From an uncultured Clostridia bacterium (lineage in GTDB: Bacteria; Bacillota; Clostridia; Christensenellales; DTU072): DNA of 64,000 nt. Shown here piece by piece: positions 31,459-55,000 of the stretch. The stretch is from assembly GCA_944362765.1 (NCBI GenBank), contig CALVTP010000002.1, positions 52,550 through 116,549 on the forward strand. The letters run 5' to 3'. The notes below the pieces were generated by a model, which had not been told where the DNA came from, made no database searches, and saw only the letters and a program-made list of their open reading frames with translations. The translations under genes and the position numbers were made by a program. Every line of letters begins with the position of its first letter. The first letter of the stretch is position 1.

Positions 31459-31480
31459 TTTTCCTTTGCCCGATTTTAGA

Positions 31481-31600
31481 GTAAGGGAACATTAATTGCT
31501 CGCGAAAACAAAACCTTATGAAAGGAAGTCCGTACCCCGTACGGGCTTTTTTCATAAGGTAGGATAGATGGGCAAAGGAAAATTATAATATACCCGCGGC
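31481..31600. repeat. Repeat A, copy 1 (120 bp) carrying a long terminator hairpin
   Basis: 118/120 identical to 32441-32560. In this copy only, it is flanked by a perfect 18-bp inverted repeat: TATAATTTTCCTTTGCCC (31454-31471) / GGGCAAAGGAAAATTATA (31570-31587). Confidence 0.9.
31514..31559. terminator. Bidirectional rho-independent terminator (extended hairpin) after the ROK-like gene
   Basis: Outer stem CCTTATGAAA/TTTCATAAGG (10 bp) plus inner stem AGTCCGTAC/GTACGGGCT (9 bp, one G-U pair). TTTTTT lies on the + strand, with an A-run equivalent for the - strand. Confidence 0.75.
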
Positions 31601-31603
31601 TAG

Positions 31604-31733
31604 AGGCGCTCTTGGGGGCGCCTTTTCGCGAAGTGTATAGGATTTTAAGGTCTACACCCTACGGGGCGTCTCCGGTCATGTACTTCATTGTACACTCCCT
31701 CCGACGCTTCGCGCAAAATCACCCCCAACACCG
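31604..31733. repeat. Repeat B, copy 1 (~130 bp)
   Basis: About 85-90% identical by eye to 31997-32126. Contains the long-range inverted repeat CGCGAAGTGTA...TGTACAC...CTTCGCG. Confidence 0.85.
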
Positions 31734-31749
31734 GCGAACCCAGCTGTAA

Positions 31750-31851: not shown

Positions 31852-31996
31852 CATTTAATTTTCTTTCCGCAAAGGTAAAAGAAGAAAGCTTTAATTACTC
31901 AAGGAAACAGATTTTAATTGAAAAGGTTTAATACATGTAGTAACATTTATTACAAGGAAGAAATTGAAGCGGAAAGAAAATTTTATCCGCGTATTA

Positions 31997-32126
31997 AGGC
32001 GCTCTTGCGGGTGCCTTTCCGCGAAGTGTACAGGATTTCAAGGTCTACACCCTTCGGGCGTCTCCGGTCATGTACGTCCATGTACACTCCCTTCGACGCT
32101 TCGCGAAAAATCACCCCCGACCATCG
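31997..32126. repeat. Repeat B, copy 2
   Basis: Direct repeat of 31604-31733 with scattered substitutions and one indel. Confidence 0.85.
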
Positions 32127-32303
32127 CTAATTCAAGCTGATTTTTAAAGCGCTGCGCCGAATCTTTTCCGCTTTATCTTCGAAAGCGCCCTCGACAAGAC
32201 CCCGAGGGGTATTGCCTTCGGACGTTTTCTTAGATAAATCAAAAAATCTCTCGCCGAATCGCATTGAAAATCATCTTTCATTAGCCGGGCGCTCCAATTA
32301 TCT

Positions 32304-32405
32304 CTTGCTCAAACAGCTTTCCATTTTCACCTTCGCCCCAATCCGCTCCGTATCCCGTTCGATACACGCTCGTCTACATCTCGACGACTTCATCTTACAG
32401 TGAGG
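32304..32405. repeat. Repeat C, copy 2
   Basis: Direct repeat of 31750-31851. The B-to-C spacing is about 160 bp longer than in copy 1. Confidence 0.85.
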
Positions 32406-32440
32406 GGTTTATTTGTTATAGCCCTTCCCGCAAGAGTGAA

Positions 32441-32560
32441 GTAAGGGAACATTAATTGCTCGCGAAGACAAAACCTTATGAAAGGAAGTCCGTACCCCGT
32501 ACGGGCTTTTTTCATAAGGTAGGATAGATGGGCAAAGGAAAATTATAATATAGCCGCGGC
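32441..32560. repeat. Repeat A, copy 2
   Basis: 118/120 identical to 31481-31600, exactly 960 bp downstream. The left 18-bp inverted repeat is degenerate here. Confidence 0.9.
32474..32519. terminator. Second copy of the extended bidirectional terminator hairpin
   Basis: Identical hairpin to 31514-31559, within repeat A copy 2. Confidence 0.65.
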
Positions 32561-33015: not shown

Positions 33016-33021
33016 TATAGG

Positions 33022-33125
33022 GGACGGATACGGATACTCGATAAGCTATCGCTCCGTCGGCTCGAAGGGTGTTTGCCCTTGGGGCAAACACTTGGGCTAC
33101 GCACTTTTGCCGGCGCAAAAGTGCG
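33022..33125 (+). ncRNA. Candidate structured RNA or 5' leader (three consecutive hairpins) downstream of the orphan promoter
   Basis: Hairpin 0: GACGGA..CGATA-AGC-TATCG..TCCGTC (33023-33058). Hairpin 1: GTGTTTGCCC-TTG-GGGCAAACAC (33069-33091). Hairpin 2: GCACTTTTGC-CGGC-GCAAAAGTGC (33101-33124). No known family recognised, and no T-run afterwards. Confidence 0.25.
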
Positions 33126-33141
33126 CGCCCGCGCTCGCTCG

Positions 33142-33430
33142 AATCGTGGCGGAGTCGTTAATATCGTGGCGGTTTTACGGCGTTGTTTGTGTAATATGGC
33201 AGAGCCGAGAGTATCATAGCGCTCTTACGGCTTTTCGGTGAGATATGGCGTAGTCGTAATAATCGTGGAGTGGTTTTATGTTTTCGGTTAAATCATAGCG
33301 AGATTGTGGTAATCGTGGCGGTTTTACGGCGTTGTTTGTTTAGTAAGGCGGAGTCGAGGGTATCGTGGCGATCTTACGGCGCTTTCTTTGAGTTACGGCG
33401 GAGTCATAATAAGCGTGGCGCTTTATATTT
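33142..33430. repeat. Degenerate tandem array, period 49-50 bp, about 6 copies
   Basis: ATCGTGGCG-like heads at 33143, 33163, 33213 (ATCATAGCG), 33262, 33312, 33362 and 33412 (AGCGTGGCG). Each unit also contains TTACGGCG and GGCGGAGTCG-like sub-motifs. Confidence 0.8.
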
Positions 33431-33438
33431 AATCAAAA

Positions 33439-33537
33439 AGGGTTGGTGACGGTCGCAGAGATAGGGTTGGCGAGGGTCGGCAGAGACAAGGTTGGCGAGG
33501 GTTAACTAAGACAGGGTTGGCGATGGTCGGCAGAGGA
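33439..33537. repeat. Tandem repeat, period 24-26 bp, 4 copies
   Basis: AGGGTTGGTGACGGTCGCAGAGAT / AGGGTTGGCGAGGGTCGGCAGAGACA / AGGTTGGCGAGGGTTAACTAAGAC / AGGGTTGGCGATGGTCGGCAGAGGA. Confidence 0.85.
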
Positions 33538-33929
33538 AAAATATTGATTAGTAGGTAAATTAAATATTTCCCAAAACATTCAAAAATAGATTGTAAAACT
33601 AACCGTTACGGATGCGGGTTTTGCTTGGGAAAAGGGCGGAATGACGAGCGGGAAACAAAGCGGAGGAAGGGGATCAGGCGGTTGGCGGAAGCGGGGCTAA
33701 AGGAGCCAAAAGGTAAAATAATAGTATAATTTTCGGGAGGCGGAGCGGCGGAAGCGGGCAATAAAAATTTTTCACGAAAAATTCAAAGTTGCATTTTTAT
33801 TTATTTTGCGCGCGTGAATTTAATGTTTCGTGTGCTTTGAGGGGAGGATTTTGCGCTTTGAAAGGTCCGGCAGGTGAAATTGCGGTGAAATCCCGAAAAA
33901 ATTTACCTTTGATTGACTTTGCCCCTTTA

Positions 33930-33959
33930 TTGACACACGCGTAATAAAAAGAGTAAAAT
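33930..33959 (+). promoter_or_regulatory. Sigma-A-type promoter of the 9.6k-aa gene
   Basis: TTGACA (33930-33935), 18-bp spacer, TAAAAT (33954-33959). It lies about 80 nt upstream of the ATG at 34039. A second TTGACT is at 33912. Confidence 0.5.
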
Positions 33960-34038
33960 TGCTGCGTAGGGTTCGGATGCCGGATTGCCGATGTCCGATC
34001 GCCCGAAAGCGAAGACTCCATTGGCTCCGGAGAAGCAT

Positions 34039-37000
34039 ATGAAACACAAAATTTTCATCCGACTTTTAATCATCGTTTTATCCCTTGCCGTAGTGGCGGG
34101 GATAGTTGCCTGTTCGCCTCGTGACGAAGCGTTGACCGACCCGGAGATCGTTCCGGGTACCGAAGTCGACATCGTCGATCAGGTGGTGACGAGCGAACAA
34201 ATCACCAGCGACGAATCGAGAGAACTTGTGGACGAGGCAATGAACAATTACCGCGAGATCCACGCGGCGCCCAGCGATCCCGAATGGTACGTGATCGACA
34301 TGCTGCTTACATACGATTACGACTATTTCTGGCTGGATGAAAACGAGAAGATGGACAAGACGTCCTCCTTCGAATTTGAATTCAAAGCCAACATGAATCT
34401 GAAAGACAACAACGAGAGCCAGGTTTTCATTCAGCTTCGCAATTCGGGCGGCACGCCGATATTCGGACTTTACTATGTCGAAAATTACGCTTATTTTGTT
34501 ATAGGCAGCAACCGCTATTACGCAAGGGAGATAAACTTCGGGCAGCTGGGGATGCTGATTTACGAGGGACTGGGCTCGCTTGCCGAAAGTTCCGGAATAA
34601 ATCTGGATATTTTCGGGATTCTGGCGGGACTTCCGACCGGTTCCACCGGCATAGCGTTGATAGACGGTATTTTGCCGTTGGTTTCCGGAATTTTCTTTAA
34701 CACGAAAGACATCACGCTGAACTCTTCCGATATCGACGAAGATGGCAATTTCAACACGCAGACCATCAGCACTTCGTTACTGCTCAACAATCTGTTGACG
34801 CTTCTGCAGAACGAAGACGGGCTCGGTATCGAAGGGTTAGTAGGTATCCCGCCCATCTGGTTCGGCGGAATTTGGGATCTGGCCGGCATCGACCTCGACC
34901 CCGTTTTAAACCAATTCCTCGGCTTCACGCTTGCCGAGCTTGCCGTAAAGCAATGGCAGCCGATGGACGCAAGGTATAACGTTATCACGGAAAGGCAGCT
35001 TGTCACGCGCGTGGACGCGGACGGATTTGAAGAGAGCTCCTATGAATACGTGGCGACCGGCTGGGGGCTGACGATAGACACCCTTTTGAATTCGCTCGGC
35101 GAAAATGACAACAAGGCGGGCGGTATGTCTTCTGTCAGAAGCAAGTGGGGCAACACCGAACCTTCCCAATTTGTCGCTACCGAGGAGCTGCCGTTTGTCG
35201 AAGAGTATACGGTGGACATTTACTTCTCGCCGATGATGTACGCGTCGAACGAGCCGATCGGCATCAACTTCGCCAACCTCGACGCCAACGAGGACGGCAG
35301 AGGTTCCGTTTATTCTTCGGGCGGACTCGGCAACCTCGGTCTGGAAGCGACCTTGTCCATAGAGGCGGATAACGGTACCGTCACTTTAAACGACATTCTG
35401 GGCGATTTCCTCGATGTCGACCTCGGGGCATTGGGCGAGATGCCGATACAATTTACGGGCTTCACGCCGGGGAACGACTTTTACGATCTCGGCATAAGCC
35501 TCAACCTCGGACTTGACTTCTTCGAAGGTATGAACACCAACGTCGAAGCTACCATTTCCTATAATTCCAATCCGCTTATCAGGGTGTATCTTGACGACAA
35601 CGTGCTGTACCTGAATTTCGACGGGCTGAAGCTTGCGGACGGCACTGCGGCAGGAAAGGAAATTCTTCCCAAGATAAAAATTCCGAACTTTAACATCAAC
35701 GCGCTTCTGGACGGGCTGTTCCTGGATATGATAAAGCCCTTCCTTGACCCGGACGCCGTTCCGGTTGCGGGGATACTCGGCGGAGGCTCGGCTTCCGGCG
35801 CTTCGAACGCACAGAACGCCGAAGGCGATACGGGGACTTCCATAGACGTCATGGCGCTTATCGGCACGATACTCGACAACTTCGAATTCCCCGGCAGGGG
35901 CGAATATGTCGAGGACAGGGACGGTAACCTCGTTTTAGACGAAAACGGGCAGCCGATCCCGAACAACTTCGATATTTATATGAACCTTGATTCCGCCGAG
36001 CTCGGCGATTTGCTGGCAAGCTTCGGGCTTCCCGTCAATCCCGGCGGACAACTCGGTTCGGGGCTCGGGGTACAGCTGTACTTCAATCAATACGATCCCA
36101 TCAACACATTCTCGCTTTCTGTAAACGTCACCGAGGATATCGGACTCGGGCTGACGATAGACAGATTAAGCTATTTAAGAGAACCCGACTGGCAAAACGA
36201 CGACATGGTGCAGGGGCACACGGACGAGTACATAAATCTCGGGCTGACGGGTCCCTCGACGGACGGCGTCTGGAGCCCGGACGATCTGTTGGAAGGGCTG
36301 GTCGGTATCATAGATCCTTATTTCGAGCTTGAACTCGGCGGCGAGGTAGAACTCGGCTTGGGCGACACCACCGGCGGAGCCGACGAAAACGGCTACCACG
36401 GTCTGGATTTAAGCGCGCTTATCGGCACTTTCGTCGAAAACCTGATGCTGTTTGTGGGCGTCAATCTTGACGGGAACGATTCGATAAAAGGTACAATAGG
36501 CTACTCGATACACGGGCTTATAGACCTTATGCACCTCGACGAGCTGGAAGTTTCGGTCGATTTGTATCTGAATGAAGAAGAGAACTATATTGCAAGAATA
36601 TTCTATGTCGGAGACGTCGACACGCTCTATCTCGATTTAAGCAGCCTTGCGGAAACGCTCGGCATCGAACTGAACGAAAACGGCGGGTTGTTGAGCAGTC
36701 TGCCGATGTTGAAGATCCCGGGGCTCGGGCTGTCCGACATGCTTTCGTCGATAAGCCTGGTCGACATTCTCGCGGGAATCCTGACTTCGAATTCTCCGTC
36801 GAACGCACAGAACGCCGAAGGTGAAGGGGCGAAAGAGTACGCTCCGCTGTTCGGGCTGAATATAGACATTTCCGACGGTAATTTCGGCTTTACCGGGCTG
36901 TACGAAGCCATACTCGCGATGGGATATATCGCGCTCTTCCCCGAAGACGCCGAAATGAACCCGTGGAACGCAGCTTATTATAAAATAGCTTCGGCGGTAC

Positions 37001-40000
37001 AAAATGTCGAGGGCGACGGTACCGAGTCGGGCGGCGGTATCGACATTCTCGCGCTGATAGGAGGCGCGCTTGACAGCGTCGAACTCGACAAAACCATGGG
37101 CACTCTGACCGTGGTGGTGGCGTCTCAGGTACTGACGACGGTGGTAGGCTCTCTCCTCGAAGGATTCCCCTCCGGCGGCACTCTGCCCGAGGTCGAAGCG
37201 TATGTCAGGCTCCACCTTGACAATCTCGACTTCGAAAACATCGACGACAGCATTCTGACGATATACCTGGCGCTGCTGGCGCCCGGGGCGGACGACGAAG
37301 CGGTGCGCGCCATCAGCCTCAAAATCGACCCGATAAAGAGCCTCAGCCTCTACAAAGCCGTCAACACTAACGGCATAATGCAGGAAGAGGGCATACTGGA
37401 CGCCGACTTTACCGATATCCAGGAATTTTTGGACGATCTGAAAGTCGGTATCAATATCGGCGGCGGTCTCTCACTCGATTCCGACAAGCCACTCGATTCC
37501 GACGAGCCCATTTACTACGAAAACGATTATCTTAACGGTCTTCTCAGCGGATTGCTGAGTGGATTGGGACTGAGGTTTGACGTTTCCAAGCTCGATATCG
37601 ATCTCGGGCTGCAGATTGTCGGTACTCTCTCGTTGGGAGGCTTGCTTAAACTTGACGGCAGCGCCGGTTCCGATCCCATACAGACGTTGTTATCCGGTTC
37701 GGAAGCCATGATACGGCTTTACGACGAAAACAATGAAGATCAAATCATTCTGGCGCTGTACTTGTATAACGGAAACCTCTATCTCGACCTCAGCTACTTC
37801 GGCATTCCGAAAATAGGTATTACCGACGTACAGAAGCTTATTACCGACATTACGGAGCTGACCGCGTCTCCGACGCCGCCGCTTCCCGATAATTCGGAGT
37901 CGCTTTCCAACGATTCCGAATGGAACCTTCTCAATATCGACAACACCGAAAAATACGCAAACCTTGCCAACCCGCTTGCCGTGGCGCTCCAGGCAGTGAT
38001 AGGCACCGAAGCCGTCACCGTCAACGTTGCAAAGGACGCCATAGCGGCATTGCTCGGGATGTTGCTGAACACCGAACTTCCGATAGAGATCCAGGACACC
38101 GATTTAAGCATCAATTACGGCGGCGGGAACATCGGGCTCGAAGTGAATACGGGCGTTGACTGCTTCAACCTCGGCGTCGAACTCGGCGACGTAAAGCTGG
38201 CGGTAGGTACCTCGGCGGATGAGGATATATGGGAGGAATTCGCTTTCACCCCGCCCGTCGAAGGCTCCTTCAACATGTCCGGCGGCGGACTGCCGACCAA
38301 CATTTCCTTCGGGCTGAAAGCCGAAATAGGGGTGCATGCCGAGGACGCTACTATAGACCTCACTCCTGCGCTGTCGGGGCTTCTTGGCGATATAAGCATG
38401 GAGGTTCTGATAGAGGCGTTGGGTCTGGTGGACGAAAGCCTCACTCTTTCGATAGACGGCATTCTGAACCTCGAAGAGCTTATCAATATAGCGACTAACG
38501 GCTTCAACTTTGCAAATATCCGCGAAACCGAGGTGGCGCTTACTATAACGACGGGCGAAGACAAACCCGTTCTGGAAGTCTACTTCGTGGGCGGAGATCT
38601 GTATCTAAATATCGAAACGGGCATTATCTCACTTGACCATGTCAAGATAGAGAATGCGGGCGAGTTCATCGGCGAACTCATCTCCGACATCACCAACGGC
38701 GGCGAAGCGGGCGACGTTTCCAACGCACCGATGCTTACGGAGGGCGAGGTGACGGCAGACGAAGTCGTCTATACCTATATCACCCTTGTGCTGGCGGACG
38801 GCGGGTTGTCGCTGACGCTTGCAAAGGACTTCCTGATGGGATTGTTTGCCACTCTCGGCGTCGACCTCGGAAGCTACCTTGACAGCTTCGGCTTCGAAGT
38901 CAGTCTGGAAGCGGGGCTGAGCCCGCTCGAGGTCAATCTCGGAATCAGCCTGTGGGAAGAATCCGACAGCTCCGCAGGGGAAGGCGGCGAAAACGGATCG
39001 GGAAAGGGAGAAATAACGCTCGAAGCCTCCATCTTCGGACTGACGTTGGGTGTCGACACCCCCGCGATGGCGGTTCCCGATCTGAACGAATACAGCGTCA
39101 TTCAGAAGCTGGATACCATCGGCGTGACGCTTACGGGACAAATTACCGGTGAAATCTCCGCCGAAGGGCAGACCGGTAACGAAGAGACGGGCTTCGGAGA
39201 GGGTTATTACCACGCCTTTATCGAAGTGTTCGACGAAATTTCGAAGGTGCTCGACCAATCCGCCGCCAAGGATAAGATGGTGTGGGTAAGTCAGAAGATG
39301 CTCACCGAAGAGTGGCAGAATTACCGCAAGGAAAACGGACTCACGCCCGACCAGCTTCAGAAGCATTTGTCCGAGCTCTACGACGAGGAAGTGGCGCCGA
39401 TGAGTTACGAGACGCTTCTCGACGTTGCGTTGATTCTCGAGGTGCTGGATTCCTATATCGAAGACAATAAAGCCACCTTCGGCGGTACGATTTATTACAG
39501 AATAGAAGCGATACTCGATATTACCGATATAATGAATCTGAAACTCGCGCTGTTCCTGAACGACAGGGATGACCCGAACCTCAACGGCAACATCATGAGC
39601 GTGTCGGTCATGGGCGTTTTGGATGAAGAGACCGGCGAGTACGACATAAACCTCTTTGCCGACCTTACCAACCTTTTGTCGGACGGACTGGTAATAAAGG
39701 ACAAGATAAGGATCTCTGACTTTGACGAATTTTCGGCGTATATGGCGTCTTTTGCGGAACAATTCACCGGAAAGAACGCATCCGCGGCGCCCGTTGCGAC
39801 GGAATCTCAGAATAACGGACTGGAGCTTCCGAAGAACGCCGAAGGCGAGATAGCCGATTCCGTCATGACCGGAGCGGCGTTCGTGTTGGCGATAACCGAA
39901 CACGCCGCCGAGAACGGCATTCCGAACGGCGCGCCGATTTCGGTGGTGGCGCCTTCCGCGGCAATTTACTCGCTGATCGGTTCCTTACTGGATTCGGCAT

Positions 40001-43000
40001 TGGCAGTCGACTACGAGATGCCGATAGACGTAGAGAAGGAACAGGAAAGAATAGCAAACTTCCTTGGAAACAAATATTACGATGATGAAGAGCTTTACTA
40101 TCTGCTGCGCGGCGCATTGGCGACTTTGGCGGCGGAGCTTAACGCTCTCGGCGATTACAGCGACATAACCGAGCTTATCGACGAATTGGAAGGACTTCTG
40201 CACGAAGAATTCACGGACAAGGATGATGTCTTTATCGACGATGAGCAATTGCAAGGATATATCTCGAACGAAGCAGGCACGGATGAGGGCAGAATAGTAA
40301 GATTATTAAGAGCAGCGGGACTCACCGTCGGAGAAACCGTCACCGACGTTTGGGCGGTATACGAAGAAGCGAAAAAATATACCTCCTCCCAAAATAAGCT
40401 TACCGATGAGACTGAGATAAAAACGGCGACGGTGCTCCTTTGGGCAGGAATCAGAGAGGAGATAGCTTCCGAATACTACGACATGGTAGAAGCGGGCGAA
40501 ATGCTGGAACGCGACTGGCAATACCTCGTAAACGGGATGATAGGTAAGCTCGACGGCACCTCCTTCGATGACCTCGAAGGGAACCCGACGTATATCGACC
40601 CTTCGGATTATCCTTCGATAGACATCAGCAAGTTCTTCGGGCAATATATGCCGAGCGGACTTATTCAGATAGGCGCAGCCGAGGTTCCCGATGCCGAAGG
40701 CGACGGCACCCATGGAGCGTTCTTTTTACTAAATCTTTCGATATCCGAAGTTTTGAAATTGCAGGCGGAAATCGAAGGCATCACCGTTGAACTCTCTCCC
40801 GAAGACGACCCGTATTTTGTCGGAGTGACCGACGAGGAGACGGGAGAAGTGACGGGCGGCTTATTAAACGACGATTACTACTACCTCGACCCCTCCGCGA
40901 TGGACGCGCACAGCATAATTTTAAGGCTCTCGACGACTATTGCCTTCGACGCAAAGGATACCTCCCCGGGAGACGAAGACGGTCAAGGAAAGACGGCTAT
41001 CGACCTTACCGAAGTGGTGGGAGCCATCTTCTCCGAAGTGCTGGGCGCCGATCTCAATAACGTCGGCGCGATAATCGAGAACGCCGGCTACGACGCCAAG
41101 GAAGTGGGGCTTGACCTCGCGGTAAGATTGGGACTCGGGGACATTATGGGACTGCTTGCGGGCGAGGAGATCTACGGGCTGTTGGTAAACGCCGACTTAA
41201 GCCTCGAACTTTCCTTCAAGTCCCTCGACGCTGCGTCCGACGACGTCGCCAAGATCACTTTCTATTACACCGACGGCACCGCGTATATCGACGGCTCGGT
41301 GATAGGCGTCGAAAAGATCAGCGTGCACTACGCTCTCGGGCGTCTTTTGGAGATGTTCGGAATCGACATCAGCGACTACTATGACGACGGCTACGTGCCC
41401 GGTCCCGGTATCTCCGGAGATATAAGCGGACAATCGAACGCGGAAGCGCCGAAGAACGCCGCGGGCGCGGACGGCACAATCGCTTCCTCCCCCTCCAATG
41501 CCGAAGGCGACGGGGAGATTACCGGCGGGGATCTTCTTCCCTACCTCCACCTGATGCTCGGGAACGAAAGCGGCATAGTGCTTGACTTCCTGGGACCGTT
41601 GATTTTCGGTGTGCTCAAGGGCGTGCAGGTGGAAATCGGCGGAAAAGAGTTGAGCGGACTCCTCGAAAGAGCCGTAAACGGCAATCTCAGGCTGCAGCTC
41701 GGCATAATGGCGAAACTCGGACTTTTGGAAGATATTTACGCGAAATATCCTGAAGCAGGCGAGACGATAGACAAGTCGGTATTGGCGCTCGCGTTAAATA
41801 TAGGTAATTATACATTGGGACTCGGAATTGACGAGCTCGCGATAGATCTCGACAACACCGGAAGCAGCACTTCCATTCTTCCCGAAAGTTTCAATGCGCA
41901 GGAATACGCCACGACGGACAACCTGCAGACCGTCTACGTCAAGTTCGAACTCGGGTTCGACATTTCGGGCGACGCCAACTCCCAATTCGGATTGGATGAA
42001 ACGCTGTCGGCGCTTCTCACACAGCTCGGCGGCGAATCGACCGACCCGAACGACATAATGAATACGATAAAGGGAATGGGGCTTGCTCCCGTCATTTCGC
42101 TGCTCTCGGAGCTTTCCGACTCCTTTATTCTGGAGTTCGAAGGCAACATCAACCTTGCCGAGATCATCGACTACAACACCTTCTACAAGAGCAAGTTCTC
42201 CGTCGTGCTGCGCGACGCCAACAGGTGGGCGGAATACGACGGTGTGAGAAAGCACAAGGAAGTTTTCAGCGGGCACTACATTGGCGGAGACGAGTTCAGC
42301 TCCGAAAATCCGGGCGGGACGCTCTACCTGAACTTCGAGTGCTTCAACATTCAACCCGTCAGGATAGACAACTTCTATAAGTTCTTCGTAGGACTTTTAG
42401 AGTCGTACGGCATCAACTTAGGTGGCGGCGAAGAGGGCGAAGAGGGCACCGAAACGACGACTACGGAACCCCAAAACAGCGGTTTTGCGGGATATATTTC
42501 CAAGGACGGTTTCGATCCGTTCGCCTCACTGAGGAACATGCCGGAAGGCTCCAGCGAGCTTGCTACATATCTTAACATTCTCCTTTGCCCGGACGGCTTC
42601 TTCCTCGGAGTAGGCACCGCTGTGGTGTTTGCCATTCTGAGAGCCATCGGCGGCGAGGCTATGGACTTTTCGAGTTATGTCGACCCGATCGGCGAAATAG
42701 GAGTCGAAGTGGGGCTTTTGGGACCGGAAAAACTTCTGGGGCTGGGGCTCAACTTCAATGCCTACGAATATCTCGGAGACGACAGGGTGGTGGATGAAGA
42801 CGGAAACTACGTACTTTCCGACAACTCGATAAATCTCGAACTCAGCTTCTCTTCGGATATCGCGCTCTCCTTCGTCTATCAGTTCCAATACCATGAAGGC
42901 ATGGACTGGGAGCCGAACGAAGACGGCATAGTCGACCTTGAAATGTCGGCTCCCGAACACGCGTATATGCAGGACGGCACCACTCAGGATTACACCGTCT

Positions 43001-46000
43001 TCGATACCACCAACCCGGTAATCGGCGTCGAGACTAAGATCTACCTCGACATTGCCGCCGGAAAGGTGACCGGCACGGGCACGACGGGCGCAATTACGGA
43101 TGAAACGCTGCACGGCTACGAACTCTTCCGCGAGCCGCTTTTGAGTCTCCTGGCGGGAGTTTTGGATGTATCGCTCAGCGTACTTTTGGAAGTAATGGAG
43201 GATCAGGAGTTCTCGTTGGAAATCGAGCTCCTTGCCAATCTCCCTCTCAGAAACCTGCGCACTTTAAGCGCGCAGCTGACGATAAGGCGGGTCGACCACA
43301 ACCATAATTACATTATCGCGCGTGCGAATCTGTACAGCTCCGATCTCTATCTCGATCTCAGCAACCTCAACGGACCGCGGTTCATGATAGAGGAAGTAGT
43401 CGAGACCATTCTCGGTGAAAAGGAATTCGATCTGGGCGCCTTGGGCGATCTGTTCGGCTCCGGCGGGACGGAGACGACGACTCCGTCGAACGCAGAGGGC
43501 GATACCGGATATATCGACGGACCGAGCACTCCGATAGACCTCTATTTCGGAATGTTCTTCGAAGAATTGAACAGCTACGGACTGGCTTTGGCGCTTACGG
43601 AATCGACGGCTACCTCCCTTCTCGGAGCGCTGAACATGGGCTCGTTCGACATCTTCCCCGACCTTCTTATTCAGGTCTTCATGGCTCCGAACAAGAACAC
43701 TTTCAGACTGGGAGTCGATATCGAGGCGAGCGCCAACTACACAGACCCCGCCGACAACTCCGAACACACCTCGACGGTACTTGACCTCGGTCTCGGACTG
43801 GACGGGCTGGGCATTCAATTCGAAGGCTATGCAGCCGACGAATTGCTTATTCCGCCTTCGACGGACTACACGAGGGCGCACGACATCAACACAATTATGC
43901 TGGATGCTTCCTTCCAGATCGGCTTCAATGCCGAGGAAGGAGGAATAAAGCTTTCCAACCTGTTCATGACGCTTTTCGCTCCCGACGGCGACATAGCCAA
44001 CATCGAAGGCGTCAAAGACTCGATAGCGGGCTTCCTGTTCGATAAAGACAACCCGCTTTTATCCGAGCTGCCGCAATTTTTGATGCTCGGTGATTTCGGC
44101 GACACTCTGACTATCGACGTCACGGGTTACGTATACATCGCCGCGGGACTCCAGGGGCTTCTCGACAGACTGCAGCTGAAGGTAGTCATTTCGACGAACG
44201 CGCCGCAATTCTCCAAGGAGAACGGCAAATACCTGTTGGCGCTGTATTATCACGATTCCGATCTCTATGCCGATTTCAGCAATTTCGGAATGGGTAAAGT
44301 CATGGCGCCCGACCTTCCGAACGTCATAGAGTTCATCATCACCGGCGAATCAGCCGACGAAAGAGAGGAGAATCCTTCGAACGCCGAGGCGCTGTTTATC
44401 GAGCAATATCCCACCTGGGCTGAGGCGATGGGACTCAATAACTCCGGCGGAACTTCAAAGATTCAGGGCATCGCCAAGATACTTTTAGGTAACGACGACG
44501 GATTGATGCTGACGGTGACCGTAGAGATGCTTGCGGCGCTGATGTCGATGCTGAATGTCGATATTGACCTCGGCAGCTATGTAAAAGACGTCATCAATCC
44601 CTCCGCTTCCGTCGGAATGACCCCCGACTCCGAGTATCAGATAGGTATCTATCTCGATTCGGCGACGCACGAATGGAATACTTATGATCCCGAGACCGGC
44701 GAGCCGGTGGAAGACGAAAACGGCAATCCCGTCACCAAGCCCAACAACGCAGGAGTCGCCCTTTCCATCGGTATACTCGGGCAGTCGATAAAAGCAGACG
44801 TCAAGAACGTCCGCACCGCCGTATCCGAAGAGCTCGGCGAAGCCAGCACCTTAGCGCCCGTCATTTCGATAGAAGACAGAAAGGCGTACACATATTTTGC
44901 GCAAATCGCTCTGACGACGGGCACCAACATCCGTCTCACAATCGACCTGCAGGACGGCAACCTCGATATCAGCGAGCTGTTGAAGATAGTATTCGGCATG
45001 CTCGGGCTGGAACCGCCGGACGACATCGACACGAGCATTGACTTCACAGGCGGCGACGAGTCGCTGATATGCGAAATCTCCGTCGACATCGGCGTAGATC
45101 TGAACAGGCTGTTGTATGCCGAGGACGCCGCTGAAATCGCCAAGGCGCTGACCGTCGACCTGGTCATCGGCTACACCGTCATGGACAACACCGGCGACGC
45201 TCCCGTGGAGTACATGAGCCAGGATCTCATCAGGATTTCCCTGCTGGAAGACGTTGTGTACGCGGGCGTGGAGTTATTCGATTCCAAGCTGTTTGTAAGC
45301 CTCCACGAACTCGACCTCAACAACACGATAAGAAGAATAATGGAGAAGGTATTCGTCGTACCCGAACTCGACGACGACACCCAGATAGGCGGCGGCAACG
45401 CTTCTGAAAACGCAGAGGCGGCTTCGGCGCCTTCGAACGCGCCCGTCAGCGGCACCAACCCCATTATCGATATGTACCTGGATCAGATAGAGACGGTAGG
45501 CGATTTCATGCAGCCGCTTGTCTATCTGAACTCACAAGGTTTCGCGCTGATGGTCACGAATGGACTTCTCATAGAAGTCATCAAGGCGCTGCGCGAGATC
45601 ATAAACGAAGCCGTAGGCTCCACCGAAGATGACGTTCTGACCGACGACAACATCGAAGCCATCGTCGATGAACTTCTCGATTACATGAGCCTCGGCGTAT
45701 ACTTCGACGAGGATAAGGAAGGCAATCTTTCGATAGACGTCGGAATATCCAAAGAATCGGTGGAAGAAGACGTCGGTAACGGCGGCACTTCGGAGTCCGT
45801 CGGCTACGATATAACGCTGTCGCTCCTTCCCGATTCCCACCTTGTCATCAGTACCGACAGTTACAACGAATATATGAACGAGCTCGCGAGCTCCGAAAGC
45901 TTTACGGAGCTGAAGGAGAACGCTCTCGACATCTACGTTTCCGACGCAGACGCCACCAACTGGGAAGTAAGTGTCGGAGTCGATCTGACGCTGTCGGCGG

Positions 46001-49000
46001 ATCTGAAGGCGTACATTCTCGACTGGTCTTCGCTGTTCGACAACGAAGTCGACCAGGACGGCAACTACGGCGCCTCCTTCTTTATCCAGGCTCTGAACGA
46101 CATGGAAGGGGATGTGACGCTGAGGCTGAAAGCCGACGTTTTGCTGAGGCAATTGGGACTGTGGAGCGTCGACCTCATCTTACAGCTTGTCACTCTGGAC
46201 GAGGACGGCAACGTTATCGCAGAGCACCTCGGACTGTACATTCCCGGAGCTGTGGCTGCTACGACGGACGCGGCGCCCGGCTATGACTACAACGGTCAGC
46301 TGAAGATGTACCTCTCCCTCGGGAACGACATCAATATCGAAATCGACGGCGCGGCTTTCGAGTCCTTCCTCGGACTGAACCTCACGACGGTAATCGATCA
46401 GCTTGCCGAGGTGTTGGGCGACACTGCGGGTAACCTCAGCGGCACGCTGGACGGACTCCTCGGACAGATCGGCGATATGCTTGAAAGCCTAGTCGACATG
46501 GTAGGTGACGACGAAACGACCGAAGAGTCGGGAGAGGCTTCCTTCGTTGAAGGAGAGGGCGGAACCACCGATCCGACTGAACCCGGCGCCGACGGAGAGG
46601 AAGAGCTCGATTCGGCGTGGTATCTCGGAATTTTAAGTTCTCTCGAGTTTGCCAAGGCGACGATAGGCGTAGTGCTTGCGAGAAGCGTGTTGCAGGCGCT
46701 TTTGAACAACGTCCTCGAATTCCCCTTCAAAGAGCAGCTCGGTGAAATCGCCGTAAGACTCGATAACTACAAAAATTCGCTGGCGCTGTCGATAGGTCTC
46801 GACTACCAGGAAGACATTGACCTGTCCGAAACGGAGTGGGAGGATCTCCAGGACTTTGCGATAGCGGAGCCCGGACGCGAAGAAGTCGCCGATGCGGTGA
46901 CCGATGTCAACAGAGATATGGTGTCGTACGGAGTAAGCGGCACGCTGTTAGGATTCAGCGAGGACGGGATCATTCCCGTTTACGACGCGGGCTATGTCAC
47001 CGATACCGCGCTTGCAGTGGAACTCGGACTGGCAGGTGTGACCGCCCTGGACAGAGGCGCAAAAGTCTATCATGCCATCTACGCGCGTTACGACAATGAC
47101 GGATTGTATGACACGATAGTCGACTACTATAGAAATATGGAGGGTTCCTCGGATGACTTCATCGTAGAAGTTTCCGGCACCGATGGTTACGCCCAATTCA
47201 GATCCGACGAAATCCGCCTTGGCATAATAGTCACCAATCACTCCGAACAGGTTACGGCAAGCGATTACGACACAACCGAAACGAAAGATGTGACGGTATA
47301 CTACACCGTAGTTTCCTTTATGTACGGTGAAGCCTATAAAGAGTTCAAATACAACGAATTACTCTCCGGGACGCATTACGGCGGAACGGAAAACCTTGTT
47401 GGCAGAACAGAAATGGACGGCAGCGTCGTCTATTCCGGCGAATACGCCGAAAAGATGTTCGAAATGGCGGAGTACGGCTCGCTGGTAACCGAAGCGCGGG
47501 AATACGACGAGCACTTCCTCGAAACGACCGAAGGTAGTGATTATCCCGTGTTCACGGCATACGAAAACGAGGAAGACGAGGTCGGAATTCCTATTACCCT
47601 TGACCCGGCGATCAGCTATGTTTCCAACCGCGACGTCACCGGCTCGGTGACGGGCTCCTCCGACAGACTCGAAAACATCGGCGTCAAACGGGTATTCTAC
47701 TTCATCTACGACCCCGCGGAGCTGTTCGGCGAAGCATTCGGCGAAGTATTTACGGATGTCGCTGTTTACGGCAAGCGCGCAATCGACGTATTGGAAGCGC
47801 TGTACGGAATGTTTGAAAGCTCCGACACCCCTTACGTCGAGACGATTTACGGCAAAGACTCCGCCGATCCTCTCGAAAAGAGGTACGCCCTCAGGAACTC
47901 CTCGGCTCAGTTCAGCGTCGACATAAAGATAGTCGGCGTCTTCGACGAGAGCGGCGCTCCGGTGGGATACAGAGTGGTACTGGCTGCCTCCTCCGACCAA
48001 TCGATGTTCAACTTCGGGTTGAAGATAAGCGACCTCGACATCGGCTTGGGCGCAGGCAACATCTTCACCGACACCGAAATTAACGGCAAGTTCTTTGAAT
48101 CGGGAAGGGACGCGCTTGTCCACTTTAACGACAACTATCATCCGCTCGAAGAATATGCGTGGGAGTTCTCTCTCGATTCCGAACTGACGCTGGACGACAC
48201 CGTCGGCGGCATCTTCGACATGACCAACCTTATCGGTACGATCTTCGGGCTCATCGGCGGCGAAAACGAAATCCTGGCGGCGCTTGAGGATCTGAGGCTT
48301 GCGATACAGCCCGTTGACGACCTCGCGATGAAGATAGGCTTCCATATTGCGGCGTACATCAACTTCGCAAGAGTGGAAGACACCAGGTTCCAACTCGGCA
48401 TTTCCTTCAACGGAAAGACGATGATAAATCTTACGTATATCGGCGGCTACGTCGATGCCCACGGCGACCCGATAAGCATCTCCGCCGGCGAAATGATCCC
48501 CGACGGAGCCGTCGAATCCGGCACGCTTTACGCCGACCTCAGCGGCATGGGTCTTGTCGCCGTGAAGCTCGGCGGCATTCCGCTCGGCTCGATTTTAAGA
48601 AAGCTTATAGAAGGCATCAACCTTGACGGTGTAATCAACATCTCCGGCGAAGAGTCCGGCGAAGAGGAAGCCGTTTCGACTCCCGAAAACCTTTCTTCGG
48701 CACTTGAAACGCTTGTTTCGGGACCCCAAAACGCCGGTGCGAGACCTGAAAACAGGGTTGAACTCGAGGACTTCGGCTGGAACGACAAGCTGTTGCTGAT
48801 AACTCTCGGAAAGGAAGAGACTTCGCTTGCGATAACGGGTGCATTGCTGTATTCGCTTATATACAACCTCGGAATTTCTTCGCTGTTCGGCGACATGATG
48901 GGCGACACCGTCATCGAGCTGCCGATGTTCAGGAATCTCCAGATAGGTTACTCCGAAGAGGACGGCATGAAGGGCTTGTTCATAAGGCTGACCGACGAAG

Positions 49001-52000
49001 CCGACTATGAACACGCTTTCAGAATAGGGTACAATTTCACCGATGACACCTCGATGAAATTCGAAACGGGACTTAACTCCTCGATAACCGCGAACGAGTA
49101 CAACCCCGACGCCGCCGAAGGCGAAGAGGGTTCCGACATCACCACTTCCGTACAATACGACGACATATCGGTATTGAGTAAGATCGGGTTGTCGCTTGCT
49201 CTGGAAGCGAGGATCCGTACGAAGAACACCGAAAAGGCGCCGCAGCTTATTGCCGTCGAAACGCTCCTGCAGGAGATCCTCGGCATGAGTGCCGACACGA
49301 TAAACATCGACCCGCAGGATTCGGTGGTCGTCCTGACGGTGGAACTTGACGCCTATGTAGACCTTGCAAACCTCGTTGACACGACGCTGATACTCCGCAT
49401 CACCTTCCAGGGAGAGGATCTCATCGCCGTATATCTCAGCGAAGGCAAAGTTTATGCCGATTTAAGCGGCGTCGGTTTGTTCGGTGCCAAGATAAACGGC
49501 GTCGACCTCATGGGTATACTGACCACGTTCTTAGCCGACTTTGCGGGCTCCGGCGGGGTTGATCTCGGCGGCATGATAGACGGTGTGCTGGATTCGTTGA
49601 CAGGAAGCGACGAGGCGTCCGGCAATACTTACGCCGCTTCCGCTCCCTCGAACGCCGCGGCGCAGAACGCCCCCGTCACCGACCTTATTTCTTCGACGTC
49701 GAGCCCGATGCTGAAGATCCTTCTGACGAACAACGAGCTGATACTGAACCCGAACATGGCGATAATCACGTCGCTTCTCGGCGATACCCTCACCGCTCAA
49801 TACGGCCCCGACGCCGCGCTTCCGAATATTTCCGATATCAGGCTGACGCTGAACCTTTATGAAGGGCTGACGAACCTTAACCTGAGGGTCAAACTCGATC
49901 AGAAAGGAAACTATGTAAACCTTGCCATTCCCGCAGGCTCTTTAAGCATAGGTATAGGTTCGCACGCGACGGAGATATTCACTCCTTCGACCGACAATCT
50001 CGGCGGCGTAGTCGGTCTGTCGGTAGGACTGAACTCTTCGGGTGGCATTGCAGCCAACATCGACGCGATGGCTTTGGCGCAGTCTCTCCTGGACACCATA
50101 AACCTTGTAGACTTCACCATCTACATCGAAAAGAGGAACGACTATTTCTTCCTCAGGAACCTTTCCTACGGCGGCACTAACGGCACGTTGGATACAACCA
50201 GTATCGGAACCTCCTGGTCGACGGGTCCCACCTACTTCTCGCCGAAGCTGGAAGAAATTATTACGAAAGGCGAAGGGTATTCGGAAGAGAACAAGAACCC
50301 CTACGACGCGGCGTTCGTCGACGTGGGCGGCGCAATAAGTCTGGATTTCCTCGGGGATATAATCCCTGATGCTGTACAATCATGGGTCGAAAACGCACTC
50401 AAAAATGTCCTCAAAGGGTATAGACCGATCTTCTTCAACAATGCGTACAGGCGCATAAGTCTGAAGATATCCAAGAACATGACAAACGGCTTGGATATCC
50501 CGATAAGTCAGCTTACGCAGGTTGCAAACGCACAGACGATAGAGGATTCTTCGAACTTTGAGCCGCAGATGGTCACGGCATTCCTGAAAAACAACGTCCT
50601 GCACCTGTCGCTGTATAACCTGCTGGTCATCGACATATCGGGACTGTTGGAAACGGTGCTCGGTTGGATAGTCGGCGCCATAGCCGATGCGCTCAAAGGT
50701 ACGATTGTAGGAGGAATCGCTGGCGCAGCTATTGATCTGATCTGGGGCATATTCGATGAAGCGGCAGCCGATTGGCTTGCCGGTATCATCGGCGACCTGA
50801 CGGGTTACGGAAATCCCCTCAGGATAGGTCAGATTCTGGACGACGCCCTGGGCAACGGAAACGGCGGCATACCGATAGTCAATATGTATCTGCCGGAGTT
50901 GCTTGGCGGCGAGACGTCGACTCCTTCCTATGCTTCCGTTCACGGTACGATATCCGACGCCGAGACCGGAAAAGTGTTGGAAGGTGCCACCGTCACATTG
51001 ACGGACGAGAGCGGCGCGGCGAAGTACTCCACCGAAACCGATTCCTCGGGCGACTATATGTTCGTCAACATAGTGGCGGGTACCTATTACGTACGTATCG
51101 AGAAGGCGGGCTACACCACAAAGCCCGAAACTTCGGCGCTCATTAATAATTATGCCGTCACCGCGAATGCAAACACGATAGCAGAAGCGAACTTTTCGCT
51201 TTCCCCGTACGGAGCGAAAGAGTTCCCTGCAGGTACGGTCGAGATCAAATTCACCGTAGCCGACGAGGGCACCTACAAAGTGCAGATAGAGGTGGACGGC
51301 AAATACGATGAAGCAAACGAACCTATGGAAGTGACTTTATCGGCGGGAGGCAATTACACCTTCCTTGTCAATATGCCGCTCGTTACCAACGACCGCCACA
51401 ACGTCAGGCTGATGAAGAAAGCGGATGACGGAAGCTACTCCGTCTACGGCACGCCCGAGCAGCTTAATCTTACCAATAAATGGGATTGGGCCAATTCGCG
51501 ACCGCTGTATGACGTTGACGAGAACGGCGTCTCCACCGGAAAAGTGCACTTCGACCTGGCGTTTGCCGAGAGTGCTCCTTCGCAGGCTGAGGAATTGGTC
51601 TCCTACGCCGAAGAACCCGCCACCTCGGGCACGATAACTTTCGATTTGAAGACGTTGTCCTCGGTCACGGTGCTCGAAGGCACGGCGACGGCGGTATTCG
51701 ACGAATACGCCGACGCGCCTCAGAACGCTTCCGCTTCCTTCCCGGTTGGCGCGGTAAGCGTGCATCCGATTTATAACTCCGACTTCGACAAAGAACTTGA
51801 AGAAAACGGCGGAAAGATAGTCTTCTCCGGCACAGGCGCCGAAAATTCCTATATCGTAACCTACGATTACTCCGACAAAGCGTCGGCTTACAGCGCTTAC
51901 TCCGCCTTCAAGGAAAAACTCGAGGGAAGCATCGAATTCGATAACAAAACATACACATATTCCGTCACAGAAAAGATAGACAGGAAGTACTTTGCGGCTG

Positions 52001-55000
52001 TCGGCTACGATACCGACGCCTCCGTCGAAGCCCGTCTGTTCACCGAACAGGAAGTGGTGGGTAAACCGGTTTACAGGATAGTGCTTGCGATAGCCAAAGC
52101 CGTTGAAATTCCGGTAAACGGCGACGTCGAAGTGTGGCTGGAAGTCGACCTCGACGGCGACGGAAGAACCGAACACACCGTCCGCGTCAACGAGTCCGCG
52201 ACGAACGCCGTATTCGGCGATATGGTACCGCTTACCAACCCCGGTGAAAGCGACAAGCTCGCACTTGCGACCTACAAACAAAAGGTACTCTATTACCAAA
52301 ACAACGCGCGTGACTATCTGTTGTACGACGGAACCGACAACGAAATTCAGGACAACACTCTGAGTGGCGGAACGGTGACGCTGACAAACCTTCCCTTCTA
52401 CAGTAACGGGCAGGGCGTCTATAAGGTCAAGATCCGCTCCACAGTCTATGAAAACGTCGATTTCGAGAATACGGTGACGCTGAACGCGAATAACGGCAAG
52501 GCGGAACTCGGTGAGATGATAATCAAGCCGAGAGTGGCTCCCGATTGGATAACCGAACGGCAGAACAGCCCCGCCGCAAGCATGTTGCAGGGTATCCGCA
52601 TAAGGCTCGGAGCCGACGTCTTCGACGCGTCCGGCGATACCGATCCCGACTACACCGACGCGGGCTACACCCCGGACGGCATTCCGATGACGAACTACGA
52701 CTACATGACCACGCTCGGCGATTCCGTCGTCAATGCGGCGATAGGCTCGGTAGCGGGCCAAGTCACGGGCGCCATCTCCTCATGGCTCGGCGGGTTGGTC
52801 GGCGGTACCGGCGGCTCGATACTCCAGTGGCTTGCCAGCCAAGGTCTCGGCGCGCTGACCGGAATGATCCCGAGTGCCGACAACGACGACCAATATCTCG
52901 ACGCCAACGGTAAGCCCATATTCGCACCGTGGACGAACTATATCACCGGTTTCGAAGGCGGCAGGACGGACAGATCGGACTCCGTATTCTATATCGAAGC
53001 GTGGGTCTCCTCGACGTTGATAAACGACGTCTTCTCGATGGTCAATAACCTGCTGCTCGGCTATTGCGGTTACGGCGAGATAACGATGGAGAAGAGATAC
53101 TCGGCGGCGGATCTTTGCGACATAATCGAAGGAGAGGGCGACAACGCGGAGATATTGAAGGTGACGGGTACCTTCAATGAAGCTACCGACCATCAGATCT
53201 ACGATTACGTCTTCGAAAACGAAGCCGACTACATCAACACCAACTATGCCGCAGGCGGCAGGCTGGCGGGTTCCGTCGTCTCCTTCGCGCTGAACTGGGC
53301 GCTGCCTGCGCTTCTGGGTCTCAACATGAACGCCAACACGCAGGAAACAGCCCTCGGTCTCATTCAGGCGGTTGCCTACTCCATCGACTTTTTGATAGAT
53401 GTATTGGATCAGGCGACGAGATTGCTGTCGCACCTGCTGCCGTTCACGATGCCGTACTCGATGATCCTCGAAAAGGAACTTCCGGGCTCGCCGCTGCAGC
53501 AGGAAGAAGTTTACTCCACGATGTGGGACGACTCCAAGGCATGGTATCAATATCTGACCAACGTAAACGAGACCGGATCCGGGCTTCTCGAAGGGAACTG
53601 GAGTTCCTGGGTTCCGCATCTTGAGGGTCAGGTATACAACTCGGAAGGCGAGAGAGGAACCTCCCCCGACACCGTGACCGTTCCTTCGGGTACCTCCACC
53701 GCCGAAATAAAGATAGGTAAAGTGGTCGGTCAAAGGTCGACCAACGTCAAGGAGCTCATCGCAAACGAAGGCATCCTCGACCAAGGCGACAAGGTGATAG
53801 GCTACAACTACCTCGACACGAGCGCTCAATATGGCGCGGAAGCAGAATACAATTATAACGCCGGCTACGGTATCTCGGACGGCGAAGGCAACAGCCTTTC
53901 CACGATGCTCAGCGGAGGAGACGACATCATCGACTATAAAAATCTGACGATTTCCTCCGCTCCCGAGATAGACGACGACGGCAACCTTCTGAAGGGTGTT
54001 CTGCGCGAACTCGATTTTGTCGACAAGTCCGTCTACGCGAAGATAACTCTCAACAACAACGTCGACACGCTGCTCGACAGAATAACGGCGTTTATCAACG
54101 GTGCCTCTTACACGGGTGCCGAAATGGGCGCAATGTTCACCACCGACAACTATATGACGGCGGCTACCGAGCTCCGCGCCGACACCATTCTCTACAACCC
54201 CTCGACGGGAGAACCGCTGAACGAAAAATATGCGGCGGTCGAGGATATGATAATGGAGTGGATTGCTTCCAACATCACCAACTCCTATGTCATCATCACC
54301 GACTACGAATACTTCACCGACGAACAGGGCGTGACGACGAGAAAGCTTATCGGCAAGACCTACGTAAGGGACGTCTACGGGCACTTCGATGACGAAGACT
54401 TCTTGTACGGCGACATCTCGTGGATACTTGCAAACGACCCCGAAGTAGAAGACGACGGAAAGCTTTCGGAAGCTGCCCGATACTCCTATGTCAGCCGCTA
54501 CAAGCTGGACGATAACGGGCAGCCGATAAAGGATCTTAAGGATGAAGCTTATGCCGGTGTCAACCAGGACGAAACAGGTGTAGCTTCCTATGCAAAAGCC
54601 GTCGATATGTTCTCCGCAAAGGACGACAGGTTCATGGAGCTTGACATATCGAATAACGGTATCCGCCTGCGCTCGGTGCAGAACTTCTCCTCGACATACT
54701 ACTCGGTGCCGAACGGTACCATCGGTATGAGCAATACGCCTATGTCTCCGCCCACGGAAATCATCTTCCACGACCCCTACAACAGCCTTGACTTCACGGC
54801 GGTAGGCGGCACCTGGGCGGGGGAAACGGGCACGAGAAGAAACTTCAACGGCACCGGCTACACCGTACAAAGCCTCACCGATATCTTCCCGAACCGCGCC
54901 GATATCAACTTCGCCGACGGTAATTCCACCGACTCCGAAGGCGTGTACATCTATTGGGATACCTCTATGATAGAGTTCGTCCCGTCCACGGACGGCGAAG

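Follow-up and report, generated by a model that had tools for sequence, protein, structure and literature searches.

In this study we describe the first ~5,600 residues of a giant protein encoded in a 64,000-nucleotide stretch of DNA from an uncultured Clostridia bacterium (contig CALVTP010000002.1 of assembly GCA_944362765.1); the whole stretch was analysed and is referred to here as the window. The region is an array of 14 homologous modules, M0a and M0 to M12, and a partial 15th, M13, of a domain family absent from Pfam, NCBIfam, PDB and BFVD, the libraries that were searched. It is suggested that these residues serve a giant surface lipoprotein as its stalk, one that is long, jointed, strongly acidic and close to the membrane, a reading to which we would give a probability of about 0.5. 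The gene is a single unbroken open reading frame (ORF) of 9,651 codons on the plus strand (33985..62940). Its mechanical start, TTG 33985, lies 18 codons 5' of an ATG at 34039-34041 which is likely to be the true one, so that window positions 34039-62940 would encode a protein of 9,633 residues. In support of this start, a near-identical metagenomic fragment (P0003) begins MKHKIF, and the members of the family all begin just ahead of the signal peptide, in line with ATG 34039.

An initial annotation of the region had proposed about 13 degenerate modules of 300-700 amino acids (aa), each marked by an LYxDLS strand. The repeat array stands, although both figures required revision: one copy, in M0a (aa 117-208), had been overlooked, and the median length of the module across the family is 316 aa, the modules of 550-740 aa in this protein carrying lineage-specific insertions. 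All ten strong copies of the motif (35602 to 49447) are in frame 0 of the ORF. The three weaker ones (aa 1890, 3758 and 4108) are genuine module ends, INLFADLTNL and VVYAGVELF being recovered by a hidden Markov model (HMM) of the C-terminal block of the module (C-block) and KMYLSLGND by a whole-module HMM and by orthology. The context given for the motif, in which a beta-rich block is followed by LYxDLS, G-hydrophobic-K-I, a linker and an amphipathic restart, was also described accurately.

Similarity between the modules extends beyond the six-residue motif, as is seen when fragments and profiles are compared with shuffled sequences. A BLAST search of the whole protein against itself gave the identity match only. 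When 200-aa fragments were compared with each other by BLASTP, about 14 non-redundant pairs beat the best of three shuffles, the best pair (aa 4761-4885 against 5096-5199, ~125 aa) reaching an E-value of 1.8e-6 where shuffles reached only ~0.05. Alignment of 170 aa around each of the ten motifs revealed conserved long strands, the pattern v-Y-y-x-x-G-x-L-Y-l-D-l-S, G-x-x-K-I and a helix. With leave-one-out HMMs built from this protein alone and judged against 100 shuffles, seven modules were clear, two marginal and five failed. The C-block HMM, once iterated over the family, recovered 13 copies in this protein with scores of 31-79 bits, and none of 20 shuffles scored above 2.6 bits. A second HMM, of the whole module, for which 112 other modules formed the training set and the shuffle maximum was 7.3 bits, recovered the held-out modules M11 (79 bits), M4 (64), M5 (52), M10 (38) and M0a (23.5), and the score of M10 relative to that maximum means that the degenerate KMYLSLGND copy is real. 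In a MAFFT alignment of the 112 modules occupancy exceeds 80% along nearly the whole unit, which indicates that the entire ~300 aa is homologous. The modules are only 13-23% identical to each other. Similarity over the whole unit, together with conservation in homologues, is what would be expected of a new repeat family.

The relatives of this protein were found with a 13-module profile, which was run exhaustively with HMMER against 1.84 billion representative proteins and returned only 44 at E<=0.001, many of them between 6,500 and 7,900 aa in length and matched over 7-14 stretches. A word-indexed homologue search was nearly blind to the family (2, 1 and 1 matches) and supplied two fragments, from two frameshifted orthologous loci in ENA assemblies. 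These closest orthologous loci, L001 (4179-21588 of ERZ16268046) and L002 (8-7930 of ERZ16268279), are ~50% identical to the gene described here and contain frame changes, which split them into 4-5 ORFs and represent either assembly indel errors or pseudogenisation. Six relatives (P0004, P0005, P0009, P0010, P0012 and P0015) are collinear with this protein over the full length, the C-terminal half included. A more distant clade (P0025, P0027, P0029, P0031, P0033 and P0044) has the module array in common with it; when three of its members were tested by BLASTP, P0025 and P0029 gave no match and P0027 a single match in the module region. Every full-length relative has 13-14 copies of the C-block. 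In P0004 they are evenly placed, 254-419 and mostly 260-320 residues apart, and across the family 279 modules were counted, which belong to 46 proteins or loci and have an interquartile range in length of 286-366 aa.

The array was compared module by module with that of P0004. Modules at the same position in the two proteins match each other at 91-199 bits in 10 of 12 cases (M4 and M5 score 48 and 38 bits), paralogous pairs reach at most 42 bits, and the matrix is sharply diagonal. DNA repeat finders detected no DNA-level repeats of the modules. Taken with the collinearity over the full length, these results indicate that the array is ancient, of fixed length and individually conserved at each position. 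The best-conserved module between orthologues is M12 (22 orthologues, 28-72% identity), and the degenerate M10 is the orthologue of the 12th copy in P0004. Large lineage-specific insertions in M5 and M11 bring the protein to a length that exceeds that of its full-length relatives by ~1,800-2,500 aa. That in M5 is ~250 aa long (window ~39950-40850, aa ~1990-2290) and helix-rich by eye, and its stretch aa 2001-2211 has no counterpart in the alignments with P0004 and P0005; that in M11, of ~400 aa, lies between the N-block and the C-block (window ~46880-48050, aa ~4300-4690). Different insertions occupy these loops in other relatives; in P0007 and P0015 they follow 'IGYxE', and in P0014 and P0022 they are long and look helical by eye.

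All 18 loci found in GTDB species genomes are in metagenome-assembled genomes (MAGs) of uncultured Clostridia. The hosts are assigned to Candidatus Stercoripulliclostridium, Christensenellaceae or "Clostridiales bacterium" and were recovered from the guts of chickens, deer, goats and sheep and from anaerobic digesters. JGI metagenomes contributed four loci, and no locus of the family was found by tblastn in phage and plasmid collections.

The anatomy of the module was taken from an AlphaFold2 model of M3 (query aa 1310-1572, nucleotides 37912-38700), calculated with an alignment of 55 orthologous and paralogous modules. It has a mean predicted local distance difference test score (pLDDT) of 75.8, a predicted template modelling score of 0.66, ~12 strands, five helices and a disordered internal loop. 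From N- to C-terminus the predicted order is a linker, a hairpin with an amphipathic helix (as in YLNILLCPDGFFLGVGTAVVFAILRAIGG), three strands that are each 10-13 residues long, a variable loop in which the lineage-specific insertions are located, two strands of ~15 residues with short helices, a four-strand meander with the LYxDLS hairpin, and a closing helix; the 'kI' strand sits between the vYy-x-G-x-LYlDLS hairpin and this last helix. An earlier run on M12 and the C-terminal part of M11, with seven orthologues, gave a pLDDT of 43.5 and was discarded; in it linker residues 133-180 were at 25-32, below the mean of that model. The linkers are 30-60 aa long, low in complexity and rich in Gly, Ser, Thr and Glu, and contain a short 'x-N-A-x' motif (PSNAEG, QNAEG, KNAEG or PQNAG), the general form of which here and in close relatives is P/S/Q/K-x-N-A-E/P/A-G. 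It is present in all 12 linkers scored in this protein and in most linkers of close relatives, and 17 of the 22 matches to the regular expression 'xNAx' in the whole protein fall within the ~14 linkers. The distant clade has SEAVTA(A/D) or SEALATA at the same place instead. The linker motif could be a site of processing, modification or docking.

The initial annotation had regarded the modules as an undescribed repeat-domain family, and this holds for the libraries searched. No Pfam match was found in aa 1-5000 at E<=0.1, and the rest of the protein contains CarboxypepD_reg only; when 55 modules were scanned one by one at E<=1 no Pfam family recurred. NCBIfam gave no match, PDB sequences searched with profiles A1 and A2 gave no relative, and neither Pfam nor NCBIfam revealed an enzyme or toxin domain. 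A Foldseek search with the M3 model returned nothing at E<=0.001 in PDB or BFVD. The best PDB match, which is non-significant, was the OSBP-related domain (ORD) of ORP3 (E 0.034, probability 0.33), and the other weak matches were LolB (probability 0.30), BamA barrels and OspA, with TM-scores of at most 0.26.

The protein is a lipoprotein by prediction, with lipidation expected at the lipobox Cys. Its signal peptide, MKHKIFIRLLIIVLSLAVVAGIVA followed by C, ends in a sequence of the form [LVI][ASTVI][GAS]C and is the sole transmembrane-grade hydrophobic segment of the protein (Kyte-Doolittle 2.91). A hydrophobic stretch followed by [LVIMA][ASTVIF][GAS]C is found in every full-length member of the family. 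No LPXTG motif was seen at the C-terminus on reading the sequence. Residues 1-5650 are strongly acidic, with 16.5% Asp plus Glu, 4.6% Lys plus Arg and a net charge of -672, and contain only five Cys.

From these features we infer a location at the cell surface, a role as a stalk and an outward orientation. The protein would be exported and lipidated, and its N-terminal lipid would tether it to the cytoplasmic membrane, on the outer side. The modules, 14 beads on a string separated by disordered acidic linkers, would then form a long, jointed stalk that passes through the wall and extends past it, keeping the C-terminal ~4,000 residues clear of the cell and within reach of the environment. The only recognisable domain of this C-terminal part is the prealbumin-like beta-sandwich at its start. 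What is observed is a tandem array of 14 homologous domains, and the domain lies outside the known stalk families. Several considerations weigh against this proposal. The function is assigned by inference, and the fold is represented by a model of one module at medium confidence. The stalk repeats of adhesins are usually short (80-130 aa), immunoglobulin-like (Ig-like) and often near-identical, while the modules are of 300 aa and alpha/beta. That modules only 13-23% identical are yet individually conserved between species suggests individual roles rather than those of a passive spacer. A stalk role leaves the conserved motif in the linkers unexplained, the C-terminal half which the stalk would present has no recognised binding domain, and the hosts are taken to be monoderm on the basis of their taxonomy.

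Other readings of the array can be considered. Conservation of each module between orthologues, combined with strong divergence of the modules from each other, is as expected if each had a separate partner, and one reading, which we judge unlikely, is that every module is a ligand-binding unit (for example an incomplete beta-barrel plus helix, LolA/LolB- or OSBP-like) for a lipid, glycan or wall polymer, the array being a multivalent binding or scaffolding device in the envelope and not a passive stalk. The helices of the N-block are moderately hydrophobic (Kyte-Doolittle 1.5-2.1), and the best Foldseek matches, ORP3 ORD, LolB and BamA, are lipid-binding or barrel-type; all of them, however, are below significance with low TM-scores, and Pfam assigned neither the whole protein nor the 55 modules to a ligand-binding family. 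The linker motif would be accounted for if the protein were a polyprotein precursor, in which the motif is a processing (or modification or cross-linking) site and the ~300-aa modules are released or rearranged into a surface layer. A short conserved motif in otherwise low-complexity linkers, replaced in distant relatives by a different and equally recurrent one at the same place, is consistent with this, and its 'S-N-A' fits the rule of small residues at -3 and -1 in signal-peptidase-type cleavage, which serves as a lead only. Against it, no protease gene is conserved beside the giant gene, the upstream neighbours in the window and in L001 being different, there is no hydrophobic h-region ahead of the motif, and cleavage would leave the lipid anchor on the first module only; we consider such processing distinctly improbable.

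Two other explanations are essentially excluded. The initial annotation had likened the modules to the repeating beta-groove of AsmA/TamB proteins, and a lipid-transfer bridge of that type would share with the array a general resemblance, being long, beta-rich, repetitive and N-terminally anchored, to which can be added the weak match to the lipid-transfer protein ORP3. The comparison did not survive closer analysis and we regard such a bridge as highly improbable. Neither the whole protein nor the 55 modules matched AsmA, AsmA_2, DUF748, DUF3971 or TamB (DUF490) in Pfam, hhalign of the module profile with Escherichia coli TamB gave a probability of 0.1% (E 0.54), and no TamB, VPS13 or ATG2 structure was among the top 50 Foldseek matches in PDB. 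The 4-5 helices, seen in the one module modelled, and the disordered linkers that split the modules imply that the array lacks a continuous groove. The protein is anchored by a lipobox and not by a transmembrane helix in the inner membrane of a diderm; all hosts are Clostridia MAGs, and Clostridia are not known to have an outer membrane to bridge. Less credible still is that there is no real repeat and that the hexapeptide is a compositional accident in a protein rich in Leu, Asp and Gly. The low identity between modules and the failure of five of them in leave-one-out tests would agree with chance, but the C-block profile scores, the 38-79 bits of held-out modules, the same copy number and period in distant relatives and the occupancy of the 112-module alignment do not. 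A bolder proposal, which we advance only tentatively, is that the module is a new ~300-residue alpha/beta fold of which 14 specialised copies, together with linkers for processing or modification, make up an envelope-spanning machine of defined length (a molecular ruler, a scaffold or a polyprotein) in these little-known gut Clostridia, and not a generic adhesin stalk.

The modules and other features of the giant gene are listed in Table 1.

Table 1. Coordinates in the window of the modules and other features of the giant gene. P numbers denote relatives found in the searches.
Feature	Position	Strand	Evidence
Promoter-like hexamers, TTGACA 33930-33935 and TAAAAT 33954-33959	33930..33959	+	18-nucleotide spacing; consensus match only, read from sequence
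Ribosome-binding site, GGAG	34029-34032	+	6 nucleotides before ATG 34039; read from sequence
Predicted lipoprotein signal peptide MKHKIFIRLLIIVLSLAVVAGIVA, then lipobox Cys (codon 34111-34113)	34039..34113	+	Hydrophobicity and family conservation
M0a, N-terminal domain ending in first hairpin copy (PIFGLYYVENYAYFVIG), C-block only	34117..34572	+	C-block HMM 35.2 bits (aa 117-208); whole-module HMM 23.5
M0, aa 197-590, VLYLNFDGL	34573..35754	+	C-block HMM 72.9 bits; leave-one-out 15.7 against shuffle maximum 6.3
M1, aa 591-922, TLYLDLSSL	35755..36750	+	C-block HMM 62.1 bits; orthologue P0004 module 2, 93 bits
M2, aa 923-1289, NLYLDLSYF	36751..37851	+	C-block HMM 78.7 bits; leave-one-out 23.8 bits
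M3, aa 1290-1563, DLYLNIETG, most compact copy	37852..38673	+	C-block HMM 77.7 bits
M4, aa 1564-1917, weak INLFADLTNL	38674..39735	+	C-block HMM 31.4 bits; whole-module HMM 64.1 (outside training set)
M5, aa 1918-2464, TAYIDGSVI	39736..41376	+	C-block HMM 47.1 bits; whole-module HMM 51.8
M6, aa 2465-2801, TLYLNFECF	41377..42387	+	C-block HMM 56.4 bits; orthologues P0001, P0002 49-52% identical
M7, aa 2802-3148, DLYLDLSNL	42388..43428	+	C-block HMM 63.5 bits; leave-one-out 25.9 bits
M8, aa 3149-3445, DLYADFSNF	43429..44319	+	C-block HMM 58.8 bits; leave-one-out 25.0 bits
M9, aa 3446-3791, weak VVYAGVELF	44320..45357	+	C-block HMM 47.0 bits
M10, aa 3792-4135, degenerate KMYLSLGND	45358..46389	+	Missed by C-block HMM; whole-module HMM 38.2 bits, HMM positions 42-268
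M11, aa 4136-4875, TLYADLSGM	46390..48609	+	C-block HMM 74.5 bits; whole-module HMM 79, split aa 4204-4287 and 4658-4876
M12, aa 4876-5183, KVYADLSGV	48610..49533	+	C-block HMM 60.6 bits
M13, aa 5184-5650, terminal region	49534..50934	+	Whole-module HMM 19.6 bits, HMM positions 21-190 only
CarboxypepD_reg / prealbumin-like beta-sandwich, aa 5651-5716	50935..51132	+	Pfam PF13620, E 7.8e-14
Linker motif examples	35803-35826, 36787-36810, 41434-41514, 43486-43503, 44377-44394, 49645-49668	+	

The terminal region, M13, opens like a module, with a linker containing SAPSNAAAQNAP followed by an N-block, and differs from the other modules at its end (window 50605-50934, aa 5541-5650), where a Gly/Ala/Ile-rich and moderately hydrophobic stretch (aa 5541-5590) precedes the motif GDLTGYGNPLRIGQI. 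This motif is kept in P0004, P0005 and P0007. CarboxypepD_reg, the first recognisable domain past the modules, marks the end of the array. A second moderately hydrophobic segment rich in Gly, Ala and Ile is present at ~52690-52900 (aa 6236-6300), and segments of this type (for example VLGWIVGAIADALKGTIVGGIAGAAIDLIWGIF) resemble a glycine zipper. The only DNA tandem repeat of the region is at 37472-37508, in a loop of M2, and consists of 2.1 copies of an 18-nucleotide unit that encodes the duplicated 'LDSDKP LDSDEP'. Just one copy is present there in P0003, which comes from a near-identical strain, and the duplication is thus a recent indel polymorphism.

The genes near the giant gene are yidC, jag/khpB, mnmE and mnmG, followed by housekeeping genes, and the locus is a chromosomal, origin-type neighbourhood in a Firmicutes-like genome. 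Immediately upstream, 31459-33984 is a 2.5 kb non-coding region of lower GC content (0.45) with internal repeats. Two spurious minus-strand ORFs in this vicinity, 31394..31555 and 32390..32515, encode an almost identical peptide (MKKARTGYGLPFIRFC.REQLMFPY), and the plus-strand ORFs 31612..31749 and 31918..32130 have 'PFREVYRI.RSTP.G' in common. An Rfam scan of the entire window matched no family. About 5 kb upstream of the giant gene, 26122-29265 encodes a protein of 1,047 aa that has a transglutaminase-like core and matches Big_2 weakly. It may be envelope-related, and it is not conserved beside the orthologue in L001.

A second giant ORF, 2..11248, runs off the start of the window. Its only detectable homologue, P0047, is 69% identical and supplies the ~67 residues missing at the window edge, which include the lipobox signal peptide MNKRLKTLILALLIALIALSVAAC; it follows that two giant lipoprotein genes flank the yidC-jag-mnmE-mnmG cluster. 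The earlier suggestion that this protein carries the same signature as the modules gained marginal support. With an HMM built from residues 1-260 of 17 family members P0047 scored 39.6 bits, whereas 500 shuffles that kept the signal peptide averaged 11.0 bits and went no higher than 21.3 bits. The two motif regions of the second giant protein scored 12.6 and 10.1 bits, and neither value was reached in any of 500 shuffles. BLAST, however, showed no similarity to family members, no Pfam domain was found, and past residue ~450 there was no family signal. On this weak evidence the protein is probably a distant relative, shorter than the family members, that shares their N-terminal design and has one or two units resembling the module.

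A gene of ~29 kb, with a second giant lipoprotein gene in the same window, is a large investment for the probably small genomes of uncultured gut Clostridia, and nothing in either gene is annotated. Now that the module has defined boundaries, a consensus, 279 copies and a model of medium confidence, 5,600 residues of what was only "hypothetical protein" can be searched for as a domain family, which is also a marker for the cell-surface biology of this clade of Clostridia. If the fold is new, or if the linkers are processing sites, the interest of the family would rise, and if the module is simply a new stalk domain it would add to the known giant surface proteins in a useful if modest way.

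Comparison with known systems helps to place the array. A literature search for giant proteins in Christensenellales found nothing, and a broader one gave analogous systems only. YD/RHS repeats were rejected, their units being of ~20 aa and without a Pfam match here, as was a phage tail fibre, for which the BFVD matches were non-significant. LolA/LolB and the incomplete beta-barrels of OSBP-related (ORD) proteins likewise combine long antiparallel strands with few helices, but LolA/LolB (~180-200 aa) are smaller than the module, and with no sequence similarity and E-values of at least 0.03 they provide a lead and not a match. The AsmA, TamB and YhdP proteins are also long, beta-rich, N-terminally anchored and composed of degenerate repeats. 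They have no similarity to the module in sequence, profile or structure and belong to classical diderms, whereas the modules have helices and disordered linkers, a lipobox anchor and Clostridia as hosts.

Further parallels are with giant surface proteins of Gram-positive bacteria. Giant1-5 of Apilactobacillus kunkeei (PMC12863079) are similar in that more than one giant surface protein gene (3,000-8,000 aa) occurs in one region of a small Firmicutes chromosome, and in that the proteins have elongated predicted shapes and no known function. They are reported to differ in having N-terminal beta-solenoid domains related to serine-rich-repeat adhesins; neither such a domain nor a relationship in sequence was found here, where no direct comparison with that family was made. 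Giant bacterial surface proteins are usually built with long tandem stalk domains that present a functional region at their distal end (PMC8286594). Fibrillar adhesins and related giant Gram-positive proteins such as Ebh, SasG and those with Rib domains (PMC8286594) are, like the protein described here, very long, secreted, anchored at one end, built of tandem domains, strongly acidic and without an enzymatic domain. Apart from the one CarboxypepD_reg, no adhesive or known stalk domain of Pfam was found in the present protein, which has its lipobox at the N-terminus where these adhesins have an LPXTG anchor at the C-terminus. Their repeats are Ig-like, of 80-130 aa, and homogenised or variable in number, whereas those described here are ~300 aa, alpha/beta, ancient, 13-23% identical and fixed at 14, with orthology specific to each position. 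A giant repetitive surface protein is thus of a known kind, and what is new is the domain, its lipoprotein context and the fixed and ancient array of 14 copies.

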